This document shows positions 33,838-44,522 of a DNA stretch of 64,000 bases, piece by piece (position 1 is the first letter of the stretch; the number at the start of each line of letters is the position of its first letter). The notes under the pieces were generated by a model, which saw nothing but the letters and a program-made list of their open reading frames with translations, had not been told where the DNA came from and did not search any database. This stretch comes from an uncultured Nitrospina sp. (GTDB lineage: Bacteria > Nitrospinota > Nitrospinia > Nitrospinales > VA-1). Made by a program: the position numbers and the translations under genes. The stretch spans positions 13,582-77,581 of the forward strand of contig CAZECX010000001.1 of the NCBI GenBank assembly GCA_964510965.1, in the 5' to 3' direction.

Positions 33838-34512
33838 TTATTTGTACATGAGGGAAACTAGTTGGACACGGGCATGCACCCGGAACTTGGAGTAAATCCT
33901 TTTTAAATGATCTTTTACGGTGTGTGGACTCAAATGTATCTTCTTGGCGATTTCTTTATCACTCAAACCCTCGCAAATTAATCGGGCCACATCGGCTTCC
34001 CTTTGAGTCAAGCCCGCTTCCTGCATTAAAAAGGTCATTTGTTTTTCAAGCTTATTATCGCCACTTACCAAAATTTCATTTTCCGCTTCAACCTTTTCAA
34101 ACATTTTCAGGTTTTCGCGTGCCCGTTTGGAAAGAGTTTTCATGATGGCCATCAAAGTATCCGGATAAGAAGACAATTCGGAATGAAACAAATCATGAGT
34201 GATTTCCAAGAGATGAGTGACACCCGAAGAAACTACCTTTGCAGACCGAGGCTTGGATTCAATCAAAGCCATTTCTCCAATATATTCCCCCATACCTCGG
34301 ACGGCGATCTCGGTTTCGTGTTTGTTAACAGTCACCCCACCAGAGAGAATGACGAACATGGAGTTACCATCATCACCATCTTCAAACAACGTCTCCCCAT
34401 CTTCTAAACTTTTATACAAGCATTCATTCGCAACTGATTCTAAAACATCTTGAGGAAGTTTTTTCAGAAAATCGATTTTAGATAGAAAGTCTATATTTGT
34501 TAACTCAGACAC
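33838..34512 (-). CDS. cNMP-binding domain / LuxR-type HTH transcription regulator
   Basis: GTG start 4 nt after AAGGTG. N-terminal CAP-type cNMP domain with phosphate-binding cassette GEYIGEMALIESKPRSA. C-terminal GerE/LuxR HTH LTQREADVARLICEGLSDKEIAKKIHLSPHTVKDHLKRIYSKF. Confidence 0.8.
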   Translation of the reverse strand: MSELTNIDFLSKIDFLKKLPQDVLESVANECLYKSLEDGETLFEDGDDGNSMFVILSGGVTVNKHETEIAVRGMGEYIGEMALIESKPRSAKVVSSGVTHLLEITHDLFHSELSSYPDTLMAIMKTLSKRARENLKMFEKVEAENEILVSGDNKLEKQMTFLMQEAGLTQREADVARLICEGLSDKEIAKKIHLSPHTVKDHLKRIYSKFRVHARVQLVSLMYK

Positions 34513-34638: not shown

Positions 34639-36108
34639 TTATAATTGGAAATTTAATCCTGCTAAAAACACATTTTGATTAAAATCCACGGAAACTAAAT
34701 TTGAATTGCTCATGACTCGGGTATAGCTAATATCAAAGTCTATATGATCTTTTATGATAGGTAGATTAAACAAAAGGTTAAGAGTGTGCTTGGAATCAAA
34801 ACGCGGCACACCGATAGATGAATTAATATTCTCAAAATTCTTAAGATAATAGTTATATGTAAATTGGGTTGATATTTCGAAGGGTCCGGGAATTTTTATT
34901 CCGCCCGTTGCTGAATGTCCCAAATAGTCCAACTCGAAATCCTCGGTATCATCCATGTCAAAAGCATAACTGGCAAACAAGTAGGCTTTCGCATCCATAA
35001 AAAACCAGAACTGCGTCAAACTCCATACATGAGATGTTCCATCCCGGGCATTACCCACAAAATAATCGTTAATATTATAGGTGTAAGATAGATTTGTGTA
35101 GAAGTTGGGATCGGGTGCATAACCCAGACGCGGGGTGATGCTGTGAGTTGCATTTAAATCAGCTCGATCCAGGAAACTGTAATTATAATTAAAACTTATA
35201 TCACCATCCCAATCACCGGAACCATAACCCACAGAGGAATAAAAGTCATGCGATGTGCTGTCGAACTGCGGCAGTTTGTCCCATCTCTGTTGTGAAAAGT
35301 CATAGCCGATTTCAATTTCCGAGTTTTCGAAAGGTTCGAATTGGGTTCCTACGCTGAGCAGATAACCTATAGATCTATCCTGCTCGTTGGAAACAATGTC
35401 CTGATTTGATACGATGACATTATCATCGTATTGAGAATTAATTTCAGCCTTGATCCACCAGTTTTTTTCACCCTCCGACTCAACCCCCAACAGCTTTAGC
35501 ATATCTTTGGCTTGCCCTGCTGTGGAAGTATCCGGGCCTTCTTCTACAGCCAATTGAAAAGCCAGTTTTGCCTCTTCTTCTTTTTTACTTTCCAAATATC
35601 CCACACCAATTTGAAAATAGGAAATCTGGTTTAAGGAAGGATCCAGACCCATTGCGGATTGAAAAAATATTAAGGACTCCTCATATTTTTCCATCTGCTG
35701 CAGGGTGAACCCCATGAACAAATTCGCAGTGGCATTTTGGCGATTATTCTCCAACACCTTTTCAAATTTTTGAATGGCCTCAGAGTTGGATTTGAGCTTA
35801 AAAAGCACTATTCCCAATTGTAAGTGCGCGCCTTTGTATTTGGGGTCTTTTTGCAAAACATTTTCAAAAGTCTGCCTGGCCTGTTCCAGCTTTTTTGCTT
35901 TTGCTAAGGTGAGGCCCTTGTAATAGAGAGCTTCGAGATTGGAAGGATCTTTATCTAGGATTTTTGAGAATTCGCTTAGAGCCTGATTATATTTCCCTTC
36001 ATTGTAAAATTGAAGGCCCAGAACCAAAGGAGAGGAAGATGTTTCTTGTGCCTGAGTGGACGCAACGTACAGAGTCAAATATAGAAATAGGTACAAAAAA
36101 AATTTCAC
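34639..36108 (-). CDS. Outer-membrane protein: N-terminal TPR domain plus C-terminal beta-barrel
   Basis: Signal peptide MKFFLYLFLYLTLYVASTQAQE, about 5 TPRs up to roughly aa 200, then about 280 aa of alternating amphipathic strands rich in Y/D/N/S/F, ending GLNFQL. Confidence 0.6.
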   Translation of the reverse strand: MKFFLYLFLYLTLYVASTQAQETSSSPLVLGLQFYNEGKYNQALSEFSKILDKDPSNLEALYYKGLTLAKAKKLEQARQTFENVLQKDPKYKGAHLQLGIVLFKLKSNSEAIQKFEKVLENNRQNATANLFMGFTLQQMEKYEESLIFFQSAMGLDPSLNQISYFQIGVGYLESKKEEEAKLAFQLAVEEGPDTSTAGQAKDMLKLLGVESEGEKNWWIKAEINSQYDDNVIVSNQDIVSNEQDRSIGYLLSVGTQFEPFENSEIEIGYDFSQQRWDKLPQFDSTSHDFYSSVGYGSGDWDGDISFNYNYSFLDRADLNATHSITPRLGYAPDPNFYTNLSYTYNINDYFVGNARDGTSHVWSLTQFWFFMDAKAYLFASYAFDMDDTEDFELDYLGHSATGGIKIPGPFEISTQFTYNYYLKNFENINSSIGVPRFDSKHTLNLLFNLPIIKDHIDFDISYTRVMSNSNLVSVDFNQNVFLAGLNFQL

Positions 36109-36235
36109 AACAAAAAGCCAATTTTTAAAATAAAGACTTTAAGAGTAACCTATTTCTAAAAATTTTCCAGTTTAATTCAACGGGTTAGCTTATTCGGACA
36201 ACCAAACATTTAGCTGGTAGTAATGGACAGCTAAA

Positions 36236-37549
36236 TTAGCAAGCCTTCTTTCCTTTACCTTTGCATTGTCCAGATTTTCCTGGCGATCCCCCTTTATTTT
36301 CTTTATCCTGCCCAACTCTCTTGGTTGCACCTTTAGCTTCCCTTTTAGCAACTTCCTTTCGAAATTTTTTCGCAATTTTTCCAGGATTAGAAGATTTGAA
36401 AGAAGGTTTGAATTTGGTGTTTTTAGGTACGACATCGCCCCCGCCTAATGAAGCGAGTTTGGTATCAGTTTTTCTACCTCGTTTTTCAACCTCATCTTTT
36501 TTCAAAAATTTGGATTTTGCGGTTCTAACACCTTTACCTCTTTTTACACCTTTTCCCTTAAACTTACCTTTGCCCTTGTTTTTAAACTTACCAAGACCTT
36601 TACCTTTGCCGGCCTTTACTACTGCTTTGGCTGCACCCCTGGCAATTTCCTGAATCTGGCCTTTCGCAACAATGGATTTTTTTCCGAGCTGTCCATTGGC
36701 AAGGATAGGAGCGGTTTCAATAGAGCCTGAGATACCTATAAAGGAGGTCTTGCCGGCTTTATCAACTGCCACTACAAATTCCGTCCCGCGCACCCCTGCA
36801 ACTGCAGTTGGGGTCACTACTTTAAAACTGGAACCCTTTGCCTTACCTTTGGTCACCACAAACCTTACGGTTCCCTCGGCGACATTGACCACGGTTTGCC
36901 GCAAGTCTTTTTCTGGATCATAGATATGCTTTTTAATTCTGATATTGGAATTTTCTCCAATGGTCAAAGAACTTTTATCATCGAAGGTGAAAGAAGCTTC
37001 CGAATCCTTTTTAGTTTTGATTTTGTCATTCATAAAAACGGGAGAAGCCAACTGAACACTTTCCCCTTTTTTCTCGCCCTTATGAAACTGCAGGATTTTT
37101 CCATCCGCAGCTGTTGCAATGCCAACATCAGCGGATTTGACAACGCCTTTATCTTTTAGAAACAGTTTTTGTTCGAACAAGTTTCTGCCGGGAGGCTCTC
37201 CCGAAAGAGCATAGGCAACACGCACGAATTCCTGCTCTGTCATCCTTTCTTTAGGATCTTTTTCGGACAGGACTTTAAACCCGCGAATTTTTAAAATATT
37301 TGCAGTTTTGGAATACAACTCTTCCTGCGATAATTTAGCGTGGTTTTTGGGAAGAAAAGGATGATCCGGCTGATTTTCAGCTATCGTTGCAACAAACTCA
37401 CCCCGAGTCAGTTCAGAGTTATCCGTGCTTGCAGAGATGAGCACCAAAGTACAGGTGGCAAATAATAGGAATTGAAAAAGAGGGTTTAAAAAACCTTTTC
37501 TACTTTTCTTAAAAAATTCTTTATCAAAAACTCTATTAAAATTTCCCAT
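36236..37549 (-). CDS. FecR-domain envelope protein with Lys/Gly-rich C-terminal tail
   Basis: N-terminal hydrophobic anchor (LFQFLLFATCTLVLISA). Central FecR fold (SFTFDDKSSLTIGENSNIRI...VVTPTAVAGVRGTEFVV). Last 124 aa contain 36 Lys by my count (GKGKGLGKFKNKGKGKFKGKG...). Confidence 0.7.
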   Translation of the reverse strand: MGNFNRVFDKEFFKKSRKGFLNPLFQFLLFATCTLVLISASTDNSELTRGEFVATIAENQPDHPFLPKNHAKLSQEELYSKTANILKIRGFKVLSEKDPKERMTEQEFVRVAYALSGEPPGRNLFEQKLFLKDKGVVKSADVGIATAADGKILQFHKGEKKGESVQLASPVFMNDKIKTKKDSEASFTFDDKSSLTIGENSNIRIKKHIYDPEKDLRQTVVNVAEGTVRFVVTKGKAKGSSFKVVTPTAVAGVRGTEFVVAVDKAGKTSFIGISGSIETAPILANGQLGKKSIVAKGQIQEIARGAAKAVVKAGKGKGLGKFKNKGKGKFKGKGVKRGKGVRTAKSKFLKKDEVEKRGRKTDTKLASLGGGDVVPKNTKFKPSFKSSNPGKIAKKFRKEVAKREAKGATKRVGQDKENKGGSPGKSGQCKGKGKKAC

Positions 37550-37747: not shown

Positions 37748-39886
37748 TCAAATTTCTAAACGGGGTTTAACCAGTATATGAGCAAGGCTTTCCGGTAGCA
37801 ACGGTTTTTCAACAATATTCCCTTGAATTACATCACAACGGTATTTGCGTAGTAGTTCTTTCTGCTCTTTGGTTTCCACTCCTTGGGCAGCAGTCCTTAA
37901 ATCAAGGCTTTTGCCGACAGTAATAATAGTGTTGGTAATAGCGTCATTGGCTCCTGTGAATAATCCATTCACCAATCCTCGATCGATATTCAATCCGCTC
38001 AAAGGTAAGGTAGCCAAGGTGTTTAGGGAAGATAACCCCATACTGAAATTATCAATGATAATTTTAGCCCCCATTTCATTGACTTCATTCAATTGCTTTT
38101 TATGTTCAGCCGAAGTTTTTACTAAATTGATTTCTGGAATTTCTATTTCAACAAATCCACTGGGAAGCCCCGATTTACTAATAAAATTATCCAGGGTTTG
38201 AGAAAATTTGGGGTTCATCAGTTGACTATCAGAAATATTTAATGCCAGAGGCAAGGGTGTTAATCCGTCTTTTTTCCAAATCGCGATTTGTTTTTGAATA
38301 TTTTCAAATACCCATTCACCGATGGGCAGCATCAATCCTTTTTCTTCTGCAAAGGGCAGAAAGTTATCGGGTAAAATAATGCCTTTCTCGGGGTGATTCC
38401 ATCGAAGTAATACTTCAAGTCCAGTACATACACCTGTTTTGGAATCCACCTTGGGTTGGTAATTTAAAATAAAGGCATCGTCTTCCAAGGCTCTGTGTAA
38501 ATCATTTTTGAGGTCAAATCGTTTTTGAGCCACTGAAAGCAATTCAGGGTCATGCATAAAATAAGTATTTTTCCCCTGAGCCTTGGCCCGATACATCGCC
38601 GCATCTGCATTTTTATAAAGCGTTTCCACATCATTGCCGTCATTGGGGTAAACCGCGATGCCAATGCTGAAACTGGAAAAGATTTCGTGTGATTCAATTT
38701 GAAAAGCGGGCTTGAGAGATTCAACTATCCTTTCCGCAAGCACAGTAGAATAATTGCTGTCCTTCAACCCACTCAAAAGAACAACAAACTCATCACCTCC
38801 AATTCTGGCAACAGTGTCTTCCCCTCTAAGCAATCCGGTCAAACGTCCTGCGACTTGCTTTAATAATTCATCACCCACAGAATGGCCCAGGGTGTCATTC
38901 ACGGTTTTAAAGTCATCCATATCGAGAAACAACAATGCGAACTTTTGCTTGTTACGATCCGAATGAGCAAGAGCCAGCTGAATTCTATCGTTGATCATAT
39001 TGCGGTTGGGTAAATTAGTCAGAGGATCAAAAAAAGCCATTCGCTTCATTTTGTATTCCATCTGTCGAAACTCGGTGAGATCTCTTACAATTACAACAAG
39101 GGCGCTGGTATCCCGGAGGACCATCAATTTCATTTTTACTTTTATAGGATAGACCGTGCCATCCTTTCTCTTTTGAAAAGCTTCAAAAACCTGAATAATT
39201 TTGCTTCCACTTTTAAGTGTTTCAGCGTATTCATCAAATTCGAGTCGTGATTGATCTTCCCAGAATTCATAAAGAGCCCTGCCCTTAAGTTGACTCTTGG
39301 AATAACCCATGTTCTTTGTAGCCACAGAATTGGTTTGGGTAATTTTGTAATCTTTGTCATCAATGACAAAAATTTCGTTGCTGGTATCGTCCAGCACCTG
39401 TGATAATTTTTCAGCGTTGTCTTTCGTCAGAACCAACTCGGCTTTCATGTCGTCCATGACATCTAAATCAGTACGAGCTCTTTGTGAAAGAGTCTTTAGC
39501 AGAGCAAACAGGGATTGGGAGTGGTCAGAAAATTCTTTTTGAAATTTTTCATCGGTAATTTCAAGCAATTGCGATTGCACTTCTGCACGAATGGTTGCAG
39601 ATCGGGGTTCAGATCCAATCAAACCCATTTCACCGATGTATTCACTGGTCTTTCTTCTGGCAATCACCTTGTTCTTTTTATAAACCAGCAATTCTCCAGA
39701 AAGGATGATGTACATGGCATTAGAAACATCTCCTTCTTCAAATAATACTTCAAGGGCTTCCAAAGTAACTATTCGGGAAGAGCGCGCCAATTTTGCAAGC
39801 GTTTCTTCAGAAAAAAAGCTTAAAAAATCAACATTCCTAAGCTGCTCTAAGTTTTCGACTTCATCCATTGTAAAATTTTCTGCCAT
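37748..39886 (-). CDS. cNMP-binding / PAS / GGDEF / degenerate-EAL protein (predicted diguanylate cyclase)
   Basis: 712 aa. cNMP cassette SEYIGEMGLIGSEPRSA, a PAS domain, then GGDEF (aa 363-367, nt 38786-38800) with RGED I-site. The EAL half reads EVLLR...DNFSMGLSS...NID...QGVE. Confidence 0.85.
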   Translation of the reverse strand: MAENFTMDEVENLEQLRNVDFLSFFSEETLAKLARSSRIVTLEALEVLFEEGDVSNAMYIILSGELLVYKKNKVIARRKTSEYIGEMGLIGSEPRSATIRAEVQSQLLEITDEKFQKEFSDHSQSLFALLKTLSQRARTDLDVMDDMKAELVLTKDNAEKLSQVLDDTSNEIFVIDDKDYKITQTNSVATKNMGYSKSQLKGRALYEFWEDQSRLEFDEYAETLKSGSKIIQVFEAFQKRKDGTVYPIKVKMKLMVLRDTSALVVIVRDLTEFRQMEYKMKRMAFFDPLTNLPNRNMINDRIQLALAHSDRNKQKFALLFLDMDDFKTVNDTLGHSVGDELLKQVAGRLTGLLRGEDTVARIGGDEFVVLLSGLKDSNYSTVLAERIVESLKPAFQIESHEIFSSFSIGIAVYPNDGNDVETLYKNADAAMYRAKAQGKNTYFMHDPELLSVAQKRFDLKNDLHRALEDDAFILNYQPKVDSKTGVCTGLEVLLRWNHPEKGIILPDNFLPFAEEKGLMLPIGEWVFENIQKQIAIWKKDGLTPLPLALNISDSQLMNPKFSQTLDNFISKSGLPSGFVEIEIPEINLVKTSAEHKKQLNEVNEMGAKIIIDNFSMGLSSLNTLATLPLSGLNIDRGLVNGLFTGANDAITNTIITVGKSLDLRTAAQGVETKEQKELLRKYRCDVIQGNIVEKPLLPESLAHILVKPRLEI

Positions 39887-40101
39887 TAAATCTGACCTGG
39901 AGCTATTATAGATAAAAAACCTGAATCAATTATAGTTTCTATAAACAAAAACAAAATCCCCCCCGTTTAAGGGATAAGCAAAAAACTATTGTTTTTAAAT
40001 GATTTAACTAATTATTTGTTACACAATATTGACATTATTTTTAATTTCAGTCAGTGATGCGTAAAATTACAATCATTGGAATTAATGGAACAGACAAGTA
40101 A

Positions 40102-42363
40102 TTGATAAATAATAAAAAAAAATATTCCATCTATTTTTCTGGGTTGGTAATTACTTTAGCAGTTTTGTGTGCCTATGTGGTTTTTCCAAATGCATTAACA
40201 CGTCTGGATTATCTATTTCAAAATTTTCATTTCCAACTACGCGGACCCATTAAACCTACGTCCAATATTGTTATCGGAAGAATTGATGAAAAAAGTATAG
40301 ATACTTTGGGAAGATGGCCCTGGCCGCGATCGACTTTTGCAAAAATCACTGAAAACCTTTCAAGCTTGAATGCCAAGGTAATTGCTTATGATGTTATTTT
40401 TTCATCTCCTGAAAAATTTCCATCGGAAGAGAATTTGATTGAGCTGGATAAACTGATCTCGGAAAATTCTTCCGCCAAAAATTATTTAAAGAATCTAATA
40501 AACCAAAACAACCCCGACGAAGTTTTTTCAAAAACTCTTTCAGATGGAAGCCCAACGGTTCTGGGTTATTTTTTCCATTTTTCTCCTGATGGTCTTGACC
40601 ATCTTTCTGAGGAGCAACGTCATCAATTTTTTAAAGACATAAAAAAATCACAGTTCAGAGGATTTTTAAAATCCAACGCGGATTTGGATATTTCCCATCT
40701 CCCCTTTCCAAAAGCTTTTGCAATTGAATCTAACCTGGCTATTTTTTCTGATTCCGCATCCGGTTCCGGTTACTTGACTTTTAATGTGGACCTCGATGGC
40801 ATGATCCGACGTTTGCCCTTAATGGTGCGCTATCACGACAGCATCTCTAAAAAGGATTTTTACTTTCCTCCTCTCTCTTTACGAATTCTCGAAACTTATT
40901 TGGATGGGAATTTACTTTTCAGGGTGGGCGAAGGGGGAATGGAAGAAGTCATAATGGATGCGGATGAATCGGTAATCATACCCACAAACTCCAAAGGCGA
41001 ACTGGAAATAAATCATCTTGGGCCTAGAGGGACATTCTCCAGTTTTTCTATCAGCGATCTTTTAAAACCCGAAAAACTATCGGAGCTCAAAGACAAAATA
41101 CAAGGGAATATTGTGTTGATCGGTGCAACTGCGACAGCACTGGAAGATTTAAGGTCAACCCCTTTTGACCCCATCCTGCCGGGGGTGGAAATTCACGCAA
41201 CAATATTGGATAATTTTTTCAATAAATCGTTCCTCTCCCAAGCTTCTCCACTTTACGATTTACTTTTAATAATTATTACGGGGATTTTATGCACCCTTAT
41301 CTACTCCCAAATCAAACCCGTCTCAGGCCTCATCTTTTGGGTATTGAGCAGTGGGCTATTATTTCTTTTAAGTCATTGGACTTTTGTTGAAAAAGGTTTC
41401 TGGTTAACCGATATTTATCCGTTTTTCACCAATACTGGAATAGCAGCTTTAATAATGATTGATCATTTTATGCGTGAAGAAAAACAAACAAAATTTATTA
41501 AAGAGGTTTTTGGACAATATCTATCTCCCCGGGTTGTAAAAGATTTATTAGCAGATCCATCAAGGTTAAAACTGGGGGGTGAGCAAAAAATACTCACCGC
41601 ATTTTTTACTGACCTGGCCAACTTCACCACATTTTCAGAAAAACTATCAGCCGAAGAGCTGGTATCGCTGCTAAACAGCTATTTCACTGAAATGACAGAC
41701 ATCTTGATTGAAAATGATGGAACGCTGGATCGTTATGATGGTGATGCAATCAAAGCCTTCTTTGGAGCCCCCTTATACTTTGAAGATCATGCCAAACGTG
41801 CCTGCTGGACCTGCATTGAAATGCAGGAAAGACTCAGTGAATTGAGAAAAGAATATAAGGAACAGGGAAAACCAGAACTGGTAATGCGGGTAGGTATCAA
41901 CACCGGAGAAATGGTTGTAGGTAATATGGGTTCAAGCACTCGCATGAATTACGGTATGAACGGAGATTCCGTAAACCTGGCCGCCCGTCTTGAAGGAGCC
42001 AACAAACAATACGGGACCTGCACCCTTATAAGTGAATTTACTTACCAGGAAGCGAAAGATTTTATTGAGGTGAGAGAACTCGATACCCTTCGCGTTGTCG
42101 GTCGTTCCACGCCTATAAAAATTTATGAGTTGCTGGGGAAAAAAGGCAGTCAAAATTTTCCAATCGGCTTACCGGATTATTTGGAAGGCCTGAAAAACTA
42201 CAAAGCCCAGAAATGGCAGGCCGCTATTGAGAGCTTTAAAAGAGCCTTAAAAGCTAATCCTGAAGATGGCCCATCACAAACTTATTTGGAGCGCTGCAAA
42301 ATATTCATGGAAGCTTCCCCAGGAGAAGGTTGGGATGGAGTTTTTAACTTGACCAAAAAGTAA
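40102..42363 (+). CDS. CHASE2-sensor class III adenylate/guanylate cyclase
   Basis: 753 aa. TM1, a periplasmic region of about 340 aa (GRWPWPRS is a CHASE2 hallmark), 3 TM helices, then the cyclase domain (FFTDLANFT, YDGDAIKAFFGAP, GDSVNLAARLEG) and a TPR-like tail. TTG start as in the ORF track. Confidence 0.85.
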   Translation: MINNKKKYSIYFSGLVITLAVLCAYVVFPNALTRLDYLFQNFHFQLRGPIKPTSNIVIGRIDEKSIDTLGRWPWPRSTFAKITENLSSLNAKVIAYDVIFSSPEKFPSEENLIELDKLISENSSAKNYLKNLINQNNPDEVFSKTLSDGSPTVLGYFFHFSPDGLDHLSEEQRHQFFKDIKKSQFRGFLKSNADLDISHLPFPKAFAIESNLAIFSDSASGSGYLTFNVDLDGMIRRLPLMVRYHDSISKKDFYFPPLSLRILETYLDGNLLFRVGEGGMEEVIMDADESVIIPTNSKGELEINHLGPRGTFSSFSISDLLKPEKLSELKDKIQGNIVLIGATATALEDLRSTPFDPILPGVEIHATILDNFFNKSFLSQASPLYDLLLIIITGILCTLIYSQIKPVSGLIFWVLSSGLLFLLSHWTFVEKGFWLTDIYPFFTNTGIAALIMIDHFMREEKQTKFIKEVFGQYLSPRVVKDLLADPSRLKLGGEQKILTAFFTDLANFTTFSEKLSAEELVSLLNSYFTEMTDILIENDGTLDRYDGDAIKAFFGAPLYFEDHAKRACWTCIEMQERLSELRKEYKEQGKPELVMRVGINTGEMVVGNMGSSTRMNYGMNGDSVNLAARLEGANKQYGTCTLISEFTYQEAKDFIEVRELDTLRVVGRSTPIKIYELLGKKGSQNFPIGLPDYLEGLKNYKAQKWQAAIESFKRALKANPEDGPSQTYLERCKIFMEASPGEGWDGVFNLTKK

Positions 42364-42419: not shown

Positions 42420-44522
42420 ATGAATGCAAGGACAACATTAGATGTCTTTAATGAAATAGATTTTCTAAGAGACCTGCCCGGGTTAAATTTTCTCCACGAA
42501 AATGCAAATATTGGAAGATACCAAAAAGGAGATTTCCTGTTTAGAGAAGGGGAAACCGGAGATACCATGTACGTGATTACCGATGGGTGTCTGGAGGTAT
42601 TCAAAGAAAACCGCATCATAGCCAAAAGAACCAAGGGGGAATACCTCGGTGAAATGGCCCTTTTGGGAAATAAAATTCGATCCGCTTCTGTTAAAGCCAC
42701 AACCGATGTTCAAACAATTGAAATCCATGAAAAACATTTTTTAGAATTTTTATCCCTTAATCCTCAGGCCTTTTTACCCCTATTCCAAACTCTTGCCCAT
42801 CGATGGAAAGAGGACTTGGAAAAAATTGATTCTGACAATCTTGAGTTAAAAAAACAAATTCAGTTAAACAGTAGGTATTCTCGCCTCTTAGACGACACCT
42901 TCAACGAAATTTATATTCTTGAAAAAGAAACATATCGAATTCTTCAAGCAAATTCCAAAGCTATTCAAAATCTTGGCTTCACCCACGAAGAATTGAATAA
43001 AACAGTCTTTAGCGATGTATTTGAAAATTTGAAATTGAATGAATTAAAAGAATTATTCGCAACCCTGATTGATAAAAAACAAGTTCAAGTTTCCTTTGAA
43101 AGTGAGAGTAAAAGAAAGGATGGCACAACCTATCCTGTCGAAATACGCATTCAATATTTTGAACTCGAAGATCCCCCGCTGATCTATGCCATTGTCGAAG
43201 ATATCTCAGACAAAAAAGCAATGGAACTGCACATTAAGAAGCTGGCCTTTTACGACACTTTAACCCAATTACCTAATCGAAACTTAATCCGAGATCGTTT
43301 GGAAATCATGCTACCCCGCGCGCAAAGATCAAATTCCAAGGTGGCTGTTTTATCCATGGATTTAGACAACTTTAAATCAATAAATGATTCCCTTGGACAT
43401 GAAGCGGGAGATCAGTTTTTAATCCAAGTGGCGAATCGCTTTGAAGGGATCCTGCGTAAAGAGGATACATTCGGACGTTTGGGTGGTGATGATTTTGTTA
43501 TTCTTCTCCCCAATCTAGAAGATGAATACTTTCCAGCAAAAATGGCGCAACGTGTCCTTGAAATTATGGAGCGGCCCTTCGAATTACAGGAAAAACTATT
43601 TCACTGCAACTTTAGTATTGGAATTGCAATGTTCCCGGATAATGGCAAGGATGTTGAAACAATTTTTAAGAATTCAAACATTGCAATGTATCAGGCCAAA
43701 AAAAATGGTGGCCATACTTACCATATATATGAATCTTCTATGCATGACAAAATCATATCGCGATTGGCTATGGAGCAGAATTTGTGGAATGCAATTAAAA
43801 ATAAAGAATTTAAAATGCATTATCAACCCAAGGTCAACCTGAAAACCGGATTGATTGAAGGATTAGAAGCTCTTATTCGCTGGCCGCAACCAAGTGGTAA
43901 AAATATCTCCCCAGCAGTATTCATTCCCCTTGCCGAGGAAAGCCGACTCATTCATAAAATATGGGATTGGACCCTAGAAACCACATGCGGTCAAATCCAG
44001 GAGTGGTGCCACTTATACGGGAAAGGCATAAAAGTAGGAGTTAACCTGTCGGGCAGACAGTTTGAGCAACCGGACTTAGTTGAAAAAATTAAAAATGTTG
44101 TAATAGCGGAGGGAATCCATCCCAAGTTCCTGGAAATTGAAGTTACTGAAACCGCAGTTATGGCAAATATAAAGGCGGCCATCGATGTATTGGATCAACT
44201 CCGAGATTTCGGGGTCCAAATATCTCTTGACGATTTCGGTTCCGGATATACCTCTCTGGGCTATTTGAAAAAACTCCCCATTAACACCTTGAAAATTGAT
44301 CAATCTTTTATTCGCGATTGTACGGACACCAGCAATTTGGCGATTATTCAGGGCATCATTACCATTTCAAAAAAAATGGGATTTAAAACAATTGCTGAGG
44401 GAGTAGAAATGCAAGATCAGCACGATTTATTAAAGAGTCTTGAGTGCGATCAGTTCCAAGGTTATCTGTGCAGTAAGGCACTCCCGCCTGAAGAAATCGC
44501 TCGTTTAATTTGGCTCGATTGA
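42420..44522 (+). CDS. cNMP-binding / PAS / GGDDF / EAL protein (predicted c-di-GMP phosphodiesterase)
   Basis: 700 aa. cNMP cassette GEYLGEMALLGNKIRSA, a PAS domain, then GGDDF (aa 355-359, nt 43482-43496) with RKED I-site. The EAL set is fully canonical (EALIR, NLS, EVTE, DDFGSGYTSL, KIDQSF, EGVE, QGY). Confidence 0.85.
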   Translation: MNARTTLDVFNEIDFLRDLPGLNFLHENANIGRYQKGDFLFREGETGDTMYVITDGCLEVFKENRIIAKRTKGEYLGEMALLGNKIRSASVKATTDVQTIEIHEKHFLEFLSLNPQAFLPLFQTLAHRWKEDLEKIDSDNLELKKQIQLNSRYSRLLDDTFNEIYILEKETYRILQANSKAIQNLGFTHEELNKTVFSDVFENLKLNELKELFATLIDKKQVQVSFESESKRKDGTTYPVEIRIQYFELEDPPLIYAIVEDISDKKAMELHIKKLAFYDTLTQLPNRNLIRDRLEIMLPRAQRSNSKVAVLSMDLDNFKSINDSLGHEAGDQFLIQVANRFEGILRKEDTFGRLGGDDFVILLPNLEDEYFPAKMAQRVLEIMERPFELQEKLFHCNFSIGIAMFPDNGKDVETIFKNSNIAMYQAKKNGGHTYHIYESSMHDKIISRLAMEQNLWNAIKNKEFKMHYQPKVNLKTGLIEGLEALIRWPQPSGKNISPAVFIPLAEESRLIHKIWDWTLETTCGQIQEWCHLYGKGIKVGVNLSGRQFEQPDLVEKIKNVVIAEGIHPKFLEIEVTETAVMANIKAAIDVLDQLRDFGVQISLDDFGSGYTSLGYLKKLPINTLKIDQSFIRDCTDTSNLAIIQGIITISKKMGFKTIAEGVEMQDQHDLLKSLECDQFQGYLCSKALPPEEIARLIWLD

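Follow-up and report, generated by a model that had tools for sequence, protein, structure and literature searches.

A predicted cyclic-nucleotide-responsive diguanylate cyclase with a degenerate EAL domain in Nitrospinota

We propose that gene A, found within a 64,000-nucleotide stretch of DNA from an uncultured marine Nitrospina-like bacterium (the window), encodes a cyclic-nucleotide-responsive diguanylate cyclase whose EAL module is predicted to be non-catalytic and still functional, a reading to which we assign a probability of roughly 0.7. The Nitrospinota are major marine nitrite oxidisers and, to our knowledge, their second-messenger biology is essentially unstudied; a literature search combining Nitrospina with c-di-GMP found nothing relevant. 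The practical value of the reading lies in annotation. Public sources leave the gene A protein unnamed, and an exact cluster look-up gave neither a name nor an accession; where relatives are named, the label is 'EAL domain-containing protein', a name that hints at phosphodiesterase activity. The sequence evidence points to the opposite net activity, namely c-di-GMP synthesis.

Results

Gene A (37748-39886, minus strand) is a 712-residue open reading frame in which Pfam recognises four domains: a cNMP-binding domain (aa 40-120; 39527-39769; E 9e-17), a PAS domain (aa 160-275; 39062-39409; matched by PAS_9, PAS and PAS_4, with a model pLDDT of about 82-92), a GGDEF domain (aa 284-440; 38567-39037; E 9e-51) and a degenerate EAL domain (aa 461-695; 37802-38506; E 6e-59 over the full profile), all on the minus strand. 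The reading frame and every motif quoted in the initial annotation were recovered at the same residues and nucleotides in an ORF and motif check. Pfam found no MASE1 domain in the protein, which also reached no NCBIfam equivalog cut-off (the best model, DibA, reached 430 bits where 980 are required) and passed only the generic NCBIfam models for GGDEF and PAS. Around 40 orthologues, at 55-100% identity, are present in Nitrospinota metagenomes, and one public protein (P0001) is identical to that of gene A. For comparison, we aligned gene A with 60 family members using MAFFT, and took 60 unrelated PAS-GGDEF-EAL proteins as an outgroup. Sequence states, their conservation across the clade, selection, predicted fold and gene linkage are what is shown directly here.

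Both the putative input and output domains of gene A are well preserved. The phosphate-binding cassette of the cNMP domain, G85-E86...R95-S96-A97-T98 (nt 39593-39634, minus strand), is invariant in 26 orthologues at G85, E86, R95, S96 and A97, and the domain aligns to the cyclic-nucleotide-binding domains of PKG and PKA, to 5h5o, a diguanylate cyclase cNMP domain that ranked below the five best alignments, and to Bd1971; PDB 4KG1 was not among the 60 matches listed. The cassette reads RSAT, and domains from cGMP-dependent as well as cAMP-dependent kinases are among its best matches. Within the GGDEF domain, the A-site (GGDEF, 363-367; nt 38786-38800, minus strand) is intact, and the RxxD I-site reads R354-G-E-D357 (nt 38816-38827, minus strand), with five residues separating D357 from G363, just as had been described. 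D322, N330, D339, R354, D357 and the GGDEF motif itself are invariant in all orthologues, whilst D322, N330, D339 and K435, which are invariant in the clade, align to the GTP-bound GGDEF domain of PA0575. From knowledge of PleD-type cyclases, we take these last four to be Mg/GTP-contact residues. Considering the intact A- and I-sites, the invariant cNMP cassette and a class III nucleotide cyclase that is conserved as the divergent neighbour of gene A, the proposal of the initial annotation, a diguanylate cyclase gated by cNMP whose EAL domain is inactive, stands as the best sequence-based prediction.

The EAL domain tells a different story, as three of its catalytic positions are changed: D613N (nt 38048-38050), K633N (nt 37988-37990) and E668Q (nt 37883-37885), all on the minus strand. 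EVLLR (491-495) and LALNIS (547-552) are retained, and the remaining motifs read DNFSMGLSS (612-620), NID (633-635) and QGVE (668-671). These substitutions had been called from an alignment made by eye, which HMMER alignments to PA0575 (5m3c) and MorA (4rnh) bear out, pairing 'iidNfsmglssl' of gene A with 'aidDfgtgyssl', 'lNid' with 'lKid' and 'aaQgve' with 'iaEgve'. Profile alignments against solved EAL enzymes place Asn613 at the second Asp of DDFGTG, Asn633 at the catalytic Lys and Gln668 at the Glu of EGVE, so that a proper alignment restores neither Asp, Lys nor Glu to these sites. Two further departures can be added to those already described: EITE has become EIPE (T584P), and GTGY of loop 6 has become SMGL. 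Misalignment of the domain was ruled out by the HMMER comparison with solved enzymes together with the MAFFT alignments of the 60 family members and 60 outsiders, and is also countered by a near-constant spacing against RocR and PA3825 numbering.

Importantly, these changes are shared. N613 and N633 are each found in all but one of the roughly 40 orthologues, and none has E668, this position being occupied by Q, K, P or I, with Lys in most members (~25) and Gln in gene A. Among the aligned sequences of the 60 unrelated PAS-GGDEF-EAL proteins, on the other hand, the Asp (59/59), the Lys (59/59) and the Glu (60/60) are never replaced. Such a division between some 40 orthologues and 60 outsiders means that the changes are not noise, and, judged from these alignments, the pattern is far beyond chance; the changes fixed specifically in the clade lie solely in strand 5, loop 6, the Lys strand and the EGVE strand. 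Sequencing error or a pseudogene is ruled out by the identical public protein and by the same states in ~40 orthologues. A Lys at 668 standing in for the lost Lys or for a metal is possible in ~25 clade members, and is inapplicable to gene A with its Q668.

What these positions do in characterised enzymes suggests how severe their loss would be. RocR K316 and E352 belong to a seven-residue set whose integrity is used to define an active EAL site (PMC2952852), and D296 is a residue of both c-di-GMP recognition and the second metal. N633 and Q668 of gene A are the equivalents of K316 and E352, so two of the three changes hit the defining set. In PA3825, D161, D183 and E217 hold metal M2, and activation of the nucleophile depends on M1 as well as M2; the equivalents of these three residues in gene A are N613, D635 and Q668, meaning that two of the three acidic M2 ligands are lost. 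With the catalytic Lys, the EGVE Glu and the second Asp all absent, the initial prediction of an inactive EAL domain is supported at the level of sequence.

Much of the site nonetheless survives. Q477, E491, R495, N550, E582, E585, D612, D635, E671 and Q688 are kept, and these ten active-site and ligand-contact residues are invariant or nearly so in the clade. Taking the first-metal and general active-site residues of RocR as they are set out in PMC2952852, the equivalents of E175, N233, E265, E268 and D295 are present clade-wide (E491, N550, E582, E585 and D612). [quoted passage not shown] The EAL domain of gene A therefore has intact first-metal ligands and most of its c-di-GMP contacts. The AlphaFold2 model is confident for each domain, with a pLDDT of 82-95 in the EAL, although its pTM of 0.45 means that it gives no reliable domain-domain contacts. 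The modelled EAL superimposes on active EAL structures (BifA, MorA, MucR and TBD1265) with a TM-score of 0.89-0.93 and an rmsd of 1.8-2.2 Å.

The EAL domain is under purifying selection: its dN/dS is 0.05-0.20 in all ortholog pairs, including the unsaturated ones, and is similar to that of the PAS domain. The GGDEF domain has a dN/dS of 0.03-0.11, which in most ortholog pairs is lower than in any of the other three domains. The ratio of EAL to GGDEF divergence is 2.4 in the gene A clade versus 1.08 in canonical relatives, and given this faster change in the EAL, the constraint upon it may be mostly structural. Still, the purifying selection and the retained first-metal and most nucleotide-contact residues together strengthen the case that this seemingly dead domain is doing something. 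Two orthologues, P0041 and P0042, appear to have no EAL. For P0042, outright loss was considered and rejected, since here a break after the GGDEF domain divides the gene in two and an intact 264-aa EAL is the next ORF.

The surroundings of gene A supply a likely origin for its ligand. A 753-residue CHASE2 and class III nucleotide cyclase protein, identified by Pfam (40102-42363, plus strand), adjoins gene A divergently in 11/11 related loci that are complete on that side, and is likely the source of the cNMP signal. Its substrate-specifying pair, R544/G618 when aligned with CyaB, Cya2 and the 6fht chimera, is conserved in 11 orthologues, and this Arg/Gly pair differs from the patterns of adenylate and guanylate cyclases alike. 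On the other side of gene A, Pfam and synteny identify genes for a FecR-domain protein (36236-37549) and a TPR protein (34639-36108), both on the minus strand and conserved between gene A and a 224-residue cNMP-binding and GerE/LuxR-HTH regulator (33838-34512, minus strand; Pfam and synteny). FecR and TPR proteins occur in the cAMP/Clr regulon of the CHASE2-cyclase system of S. meliloti, and here they probably partner the CHASE2 cyclase at the envelope. The cNMP domain of the regulator is 43% identical to that of gene A, its closest relative within the window. In two other, independent lineages, the HTH half of the regulator is fused in-frame to the C-terminus of the gene A EAL, each fusion being nested among unfused relatives. 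The FecR and TPR genes are deleted in both fusion loci (L014 and L015), and in L015 the cyclase is reduced to a 119-aa CHASE2 fragment. Lastly, the divergent intergenic region between gene A and the cyclase holds an imperfect palindrome, GTAAC-N9-GTTAA (40004-40022), which is a candidate operator: it is a conserved block in the intergenic alignment, takes the perfect form TGTAACA-N4-TGTTACA in L004, and has a single match in the window versus 0.03 expected.

Beyond the cyclase lies paralog B (42420-44522, plus strand), a 700-residue protein with the same architecture as gene A by Pfam and motifs. It has a canonical EAL (DDFGSGYTS, KID and EGVE) but reads GGDDF in place of GGDEF, and by these motifs it is the mirror image of gene A, pairing a canonical EAL with an eroded GGDEF where gene A pairs an intact GGDEF with an apparently dead EAL. 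We predict that it is a phosphodiesterase specialist. Paralog B is found in only 4 related loci, at two different positions.

Discussion

The activities, the ligand and the direction of regulation in the following scheme are all ones that we infer. An envelope signal, probably received with the help of the FecR and TPR proteins, would lead the CHASE2 cyclase to make a cyclic mononucleotide, which would then bind the N-terminal cNMP domain of the soluble gene A protein. Relayed by the PAS domain, the signal would reach the GGDEF domain and lead to c-di-GMP synthesis, with feedback limitation via the RxxD I-site. The EAL domain would be unable to hydrolyse this product, two M2 ligands being lost through D613N and E668Q and the catalytic lysine through K633N, and the DDFGTGY loop, which delivers the M2 ligands, being remodelled. 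Most likely, the domain would instead be cis-regulatory, binding the product and/or controlling the dimerisation that the GGDEF domain needs; it may also offer a contact surface for the cNMP-LuxR regulator of the locus.

That last possibility could be taken further, such that the EAL is a c-di-GMP-dependent docking module and gene A is primarily a trigger-type protein, engaging or releasing the cNMP-LuxR factor so that cNMP and c-di-GMP converge on transcription. The two independent in-frame EAL-HTH fusions, nested among unfused relatives, are what one might expect of such a partnership, as are a regulator that is conserved in the locus and whose cNMP domain is the closest in the window to that of gene A, the conserved palindrome in the gene A/cyclase promoter region, and the first-metal and most nucleotide contacts left in the EAL. 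However, the fusions arose by the deletion of adjacent genes, and adjacency alone could thus yield them; they are known from metagenome assemblies, one of them on a contig of just 6 kb; and the GGDEF domain is the invariant and most constrained part of the protein, which argues for catalysis, and not scaffolding, as the core role. We consider docking as the primary function rather unlikely. Decidedly unlikely, in our estimation, is a more elaborate version, whereby the selective, clade-wide loss of only the second-metal/Lys half has produced a metal-assisted c-di-GMP sensor coupled to the cNMP-LuxR factor, the fusions serve as Rosetta-stone evidence for this coupling, and the CHASE2 cyclase with its Arg/Gly pair may make a non-standard product. 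If true, this would be a previously undescribed two-messenger (cNMP and c-di-GMP) transcriptional switch.

Could gene A instead still be bifunctional, with a weak or conditional EAL phosphodiesterase that relies, say, on a single metal, or that acts on pGpG or some other cyclic dinucleotide? From sequence, residual or altered catalysis is conceivable because the exchanges of D for N, K for N and E for Q are conservative, isosteric amide swaps; the Gln and Arg that bind substrate are in place, as are the first-metal ligands, the domain is under purifying selection, and the Lys668 of most of the clade could in principle place a positive charge near the lost Lys/metal site. Yet gene A has Gln and not Lys at 668, the metal-positioning DDFGTGY loop is remodelled as well, and the nucleophile requires both M1 and M2 for its activation. 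Moreover, the Lys and Glu equivalents are in the set whose substitution is taken to abolish activity (PMC2952852), and D, K and E are present throughout the 60 canonical comparators, which shows how little change active enzymes tolerate at these sites; we therefore find bifunctionality quite improbable. Highly improbable is the notion that the EAL is a functionless evolutionary remnant, retained solely because the protein would become unstable without it. This would sit well with the missing catalytic residues, with the 2.4 times faster evolution of the EAL than the GGDEF domain in the clade, and with the one genome that splits the gene between GGDEF and EAL. Against it, a full-length EAL persists in ~40 lineages down to 55% identity, dN/dS is low in every pair, unsaturated ones included, the ten active-site and ligand-contact residues have been held invariant or nearly so despite the predicted loss of catalysis, and even the split gene retains an intact EAL ORF. 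We thus return to the cyclic-nucleotide-responsive diguanylate cyclase with a non-catalytic, functional EAL.

The locus is also of value as a compact, conserved and experimentally tractable Nitrospinota module, whose predicted parts are a cyclase that senses the envelope, a c-di-GMP synthase and a transcription factor that each sense cNMP, and, optionally, a phosphodiesterase that does so too. As paralogous GGDEF-EAL hybrids, gene A and paralog B also provide a clean natural case of domains inactivated reciprocally, and the seemingly dead EAL of gene A, which remains under selection, offers a useful test case for the roles of half-degenerate EAL domains.

The design itself is already known, from XC_0250/XC_0249 and from DgcE, and gene A is a tidy, fairly ordinary example of it. 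In the survey of hybrid proteins in PMC2952852, the class with an intact GGDEF and a degenerate EAL is the rarer one, with ~2,070 both-intact, ~1,190 EAL-only and of the order of 180 GGDEF-only proteins, counts that are approximate and computed from the quoted percentages. The same source describes the DGC/PDEA paralogs of Gluconacetobacter xylinus and CC3396 (PdeA) of Caulobacter, in which one domain is catalytic and the other regulatory. CC3396 resembles paralog B, with its eroded GGDEF and intact EAL, and gene A has the opposite polarity; both these systems differ in having other sensor domains, with neither a cNMP input nor a linked cyclase. Bd1971 of Bdellovibrio, which joins a cNMP-binding domain to an EAL, matches the corresponding parts of gene A in sequence and fold, but it has no GGDEF, and its EAL was called an 'EAL enzyme' by its depositors and solved with bound c-di-GMP; functionally, it is closer to paralog B than to gene A. 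FimX and LapD show that a dead EAL fold can be a c-di-GMP-binding module, and gene A matches LapD GGDEF-EAL structures, among others, in fold. In those proteins both domains are degenerate, and FimX is without the metal-binding DDFGTG motif, whereas gene A keeps an intact GGDEF A-site and all first-metal ligands, and is thus half-degenerate by comparison.

For the input side, a close likeness is to Xanthomonas campestris, where cGMP binding to XC_0249 enhances c-di-GMP synthesis (An et al. 2013, PMC3770947), and where, as at gene A, a class III cyclase gene (XC_0250) is linked to a gene for a cNMP-binding and GGDEF protein. The stimulation of XC_0249 by cGMP is demonstrated, whereas the responsiveness of gene A is predicted; gene A adds a PAS and a degenerate EAL, its cyclase is of the membrane CHASE2 type with the Arg/Gly pair, and its locus also carries genes for FecR, TPR and cNMP-LuxR proteins, joined in some genomes by the predicted phosphodiesterase paralog. 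For the output side we look to DgcE of E. coli (MASE1-PAS3-GGDEF-EALdeg), an active diguanylate cyclase that is inhibited by its C-terminal degenerate EAL, a domain that works against oligomerisation (Pfiffer et al. 2019, PMC6510439). DgcE is anchored in the membrane by MASE1 and activated by the GTPase RdcA, whilst gene A, whose activity is predicted, dispenses with MASE1 and has a cNMP input. By analogy, DgcE is the most direct precedent for a cis-regulatory role of the gene A EAL.

Protein A combines an intact GGDEF domain with a degenerate EAL domain

Gene A (37748-39886, minus strand) encodes 712 residues, in which Pfam places a cNMP_binding domain (aa 40-120), a PAS domain (aa 160-275), a GGDEF domain (aa 284-440; E 9e-51) and an EAL domain (aa 461-695; E 6e-59) that covers the whole profile length. 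A script located the motifs GGDEF (aa 363-367), RGED (aa 354-357, five residues separating D357 from G363), EVLLR (aa 491-495), LALNIS (aa 547-552), DNFSMGLSS (aa 612-620), NID (aa 633-635) and QGVE (aa 668-671), all exactly at the residues and nucleotides given in the initial annotation, including the RxxD I-site that it described five residues upstream of GGDEF. Indeed, A shows every feature of a GGDEF cyclase that sequence can test, and in an NCBIfam search with A no equivalog reached its cut-off.

The EAL half had been read by eye as carrying three substitutions (DDFG to DNFS, KID to NID and EGVE to QGVE), and HMMER alignment to the GGDEF-EAL tandems of PA0575 (5m3c) and MorA (4rnh) bears this out: iidNfsmglssl of A falls on aidDfgtgyssl of the solved enzyme, lNidrglv on lKidksfi, and aaQgve on iaEgve. 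Rather than restoring Asp, Lys and Glu, proper alignment leaves Asn, Asn and Gln in their places, and adds two departures that had gone unremarked, EIPE where EITE is expected and SMGL where the loop should read GTGY. Residue spacing relative to published RocR numbering is almost constant, and by this spacing Q477, E491, R495, N550, E582, E585, D612, N613, N633, D635 and Q668 of A correspond to RocR Q161, E175, R179, N233, E265, E268, D295, D296, K316, D318 and E352, respectively. As quoted from the comparative genomics of Seshasayee et al., an active EAL needs all of E175, N233, E265, E268, D295, K316 and E352, with Q161, R179, D296 and D318 recognising c-di-GMP (PMC2952852). The second catalytic metal (M2) of PA3825-EAL is bound by Asp161 (the second Asp of DDFGTG) and Asp183 (of the KxD motif), joined in the Ca complex by Glu217 (of EGVE); activation of the nucleophile requires both M1 and M2. 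These three ligands correspond by spacing to N613, D635 and Q668. [quoted passage not shown] Judged by these residues, A falls outside the active EAL phosphodiesterases, and the inactive EAL first proposed stands as a prediction.

The substitutions are fixed across a clade of Nitrospinota proteins

A database search with A returned an identical protein and homologues of gradually decreasing similarity, of which all that bear a source name come from Nitrospina/Nitrospinota metagenome bins. Across about 40 orthologues (55-100% identity), positions 613 and 633 are each Asn in all but one, Glu is absent from position 668 (Q, K, P or I), P, S or Q stands at 584 where the canonical residue is Thr, and loop 6 is degenerate as well. 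No variation is seen in GGDEF, RxxD or the remaining GGDEF-domain contacts. Nearly all clade-fixed non-canonical sites map to strand 5, the DDFGTGY loop, the Lys strand with its following helix, and the EGVE strand. More distant family members of the same architecture are fully canonical, including those of the cultured Nitrospina gracilis and N. watsonii, and 60 unrelated PAS-GGDEF-EAL proteins have T, D, K and E at the four positions in every aligned sequence. With an identical protein, some 40 orthologues alike and canonical comparators, chance or noise can be ruled out as the source of these changes.

Two members depart from the pattern, P0023 as the only one with Asp at 613 and P0007 as the only one with Lys at 633; at the other two catalytic positions, neither has the canonical residue. 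Most clade members (P0009, P0014-P0036 and P0038-P0040) have Lys in place of the EGVE Glu at 668 and Asn at the canonical Lys site, 633, which could possibly reflect a relocation of positive charge inside a dead active site; this would not apply to A itself, since it has Gln at 668.

The EAL domain appears maintained rather than a relic

Mean pairwise identity in the A clade is 83% for GGDEF and 60% for EAL, an EAL/GGDEF divergence ratio of 2.4, against 1.08 in canonical relatives (59% and 54%) and 0.90 in the clade of paralog B (71% and 74%), so constraint on the EAL has relaxed. Over nine ortholog pairs (Nei-Gojobori), including unsaturated ones with dS of 0.36-0.66, EAL dN/dS is 0.05-0.20, similar to that of PAS (0.07-0.23) and higher than that of GGDEF (0.03-0.11) in all pairs but one. 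The domain is full length across about 40 lineages; the one apparent EAL loss, P0042, is a split orthologue in a Nitrospina bin (contig L013, 8001-10118), with a 429-aa cNMP-PAS-GGDEF ORF and a 264-aa EAL ORF 33 bases apart. The split could stem from a frameshift or a misassembly, or else the dead EAL has separated naturally.

An AlphaFold2 model of A, built from an alignment of 70 sequences, has a mean pLDDT of 86 (82-95 in the EAL blocks) and a pTM of only 0.45, which makes its inter-domain geometry unreliable. The comparison with metal-bound EAL structures that had been suggested gives a matching fold: at TM 0.89-0.93 and rmsd 1.8-2.2 Å, Foldseek aligns the EAL model with active enzymes (BifA, MorA, MucR, TBD1265 and PdeA), several of them in complex with metal and c-di-GMP or pGpG. 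In the model, then, the scaffold is canonical and the change limited to chemistry, and the sequence record argues for a domain that is maintained.

A conserved neighbourhood and a reciprocally specialised paralog

Divergent from A lies a CHASE2 and class III nucleotide cyclase (Pfam; 40102-42363, plus strand), and beyond it paralog B (42420-44522, plus strand), which shares the four-domain architecture of A at 35% identity. On the other side, on the minus strand, FecR-domain and TPR proteins (34639-37549) separate A from a 224-aa regulator with cNMP_binding and GerE/LuxR-HTH domains (Pfam; 33838-34512). The rest of the window holds no further GGDEF, EAL or cNMP-domain gene. The order regulator-TPR-FecR-A with the divergent cyclase is kept wherever the contig reaches, in eleven Nitrospinota loci of the genome collection and the additional unfused contig L013. 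The TPR protein has a signal-peptide-like N-terminus, and the FecR-domain protein a long, Lys/Gly-rich C-terminal tail. Between A and the cyclase, an imperfect palindrome, GTAAC-N9-GTTAA (40004-40022), matches once in the window against 0.03 expected, and in related loci the equivalent spot is occupied by boxes resembling TGTAACA-N4-TGTTACA. We regard the palindrome as a candidate operator to which the regulator would bind.

B has orthologues in only four related loci (L001, L006, L008 and L010), at two different positions, either within the A-cyclase pair or beyond it; this distribution suggests that it is mobile or repeatedly lost. Throughout its clade the EAL is fully canonical and the GGDEF active site eroded, four of five members, B included, reading GGDDF and three having Asn or Gly in place of the Mg-binding Asp. 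A and B are hence reciprocally specialised, A as the predicted synthase and B as the predicted phosphodiesterase. They did not arise by recent duplication, since both resemble canonical family members more than they resemble one another.

The input side of A looks ligand-competent: its phosphate-binding cassette (G85, E86, R95, S96 and A97) is invariant in orthologues and aligns with those of PKG and PKA cyclic-nucleotide-binding domains, and further matches to the domain are the cNMP domains of Bd1971 and of a diguanylate cyclase of known structure (5h5o). In A this region (39437-39826, minus strand) is 43% identical to the regulator's cNMP domain and 36% to B's, which hints that A and the regulator may read the same ligand. 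At the two substrate-specifying positions the cyclase has Arg544 (nt 41731-41733) and Gly618 (nt 41953-41955), a pair kept in 11 of 11 orthologues. CyaB has Lys/Thr there, and the cyclase domain of Cya2 (2w01), a guanylate cyclase, has Glu/Gly; the 6fht chimera, which carries this Cya2 domain, has Lys where 2w01 has Glu.

A proposed mechanism, and a possible link to the regulator

What we observe is the state of the sequence, its conservation and the selection on it, the predicted fold and the linkage of the genes; from this, a mechanism can be proposed in which the CHASE2 cyclase, probably with its FecR and TPR envelope partners, would make a cyclic mononucleotide (cAMP, cGMP or another) that binds the N-terminal domain of A; the signal, passing via PAS, would promote GGDEF dimerisation and c-di-GMP synthesis, with output limited at the RxxD site. 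The EAL, presumably unable to hydrolyse c-di-GMP, would serve as a regulatory module in cis, through product binding with the retained M1 site and/or control of oligomerisation. The net activity first envisaged, a cNMP-gated diguanylate cyclase, is thus upheld as a prediction by the intact GGDEF/RxxD and cNMP cassette.

Perhaps the EAL is also, or instead, coupled to the regulator. Two A-clade members, P0037 (contig L014, 9001-11496) and P0018 (contig L015, 2239-4737), end in a C-terminal GerE HTH, and their tails share 64% identity with the C-terminal half of the adjacent regulator. Both contigs are without TPR and FecR genes: by synteny, a clean in-frame deletion in L014 has taken out FecR, TPR and the N-terminal half of the regulator, and L015 shows a like in-frame fusion with the cyclase cut to a 119-aa CHASE2 fragment. 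The junctions differ, and the nearest relatives of each fusion protein are unfused (83-84% and 70-74% identity), nearer than the two fusions are to each other (66%), which makes the events independent. Such Rosetta-stone evidence is suggestive of A and the regulator acting together; however, gene adjacency by itself could yield such fusions, and we therefore hold this coupling to be improbable. It is, to our minds, a long shot that the half-ablated EAL senses c-di-GMP with the help of a metal and is coupled to the cNMP-LuxR regulator.

Comparison with known systems

These results correct the likely functional annotation of A, the A/B pair is a clear natural example of domains inactivated reciprocally, and the locus represents a compact module for two messengers in a phylum that is ecologically important and little studied. 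A is an uncharacterised new protein of a known type and not a new kind of system, as precedents exist for every element of it and its locus. Hybrid GGDEF-EAL proteins in which one domain is dead were already described in the 2010 survey, where, by approximate arithmetic from its quoted percentages, an intact GGDEF with a degenerate EAL is the rarer class (PMC2952852). For an EAL that regulates in cis, the direct precedent is E. coli DgcE, an active cyclase whose inhibitory degenerate EAL counteracts oligomer formation (PMC6510439). Degenerate EALs also act as c-di-GMP receptors in FimX and LapD, a type to which A does not belong, since its GGDEF is intact. The input side has its precedent in Xanthomonas, where cGMP produced by XC_0250, a class III cyclase, binds to the linked cNMP-GGDEF protein XC_0249 with a KD of about 0.3 µM, such that more c-di-GMP is made (PMC3770947). 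Bd1971, like XC_0249, brings cNMP input to a c-di-GMP enzyme. Finally, the association of CHASE2 cyclase, FecR, TPR and cNMP regulator resembles the CyaD1-Clr regulon of S. meliloti, in which CHASE2 cyclases are linked with FecR and TPR proteins.
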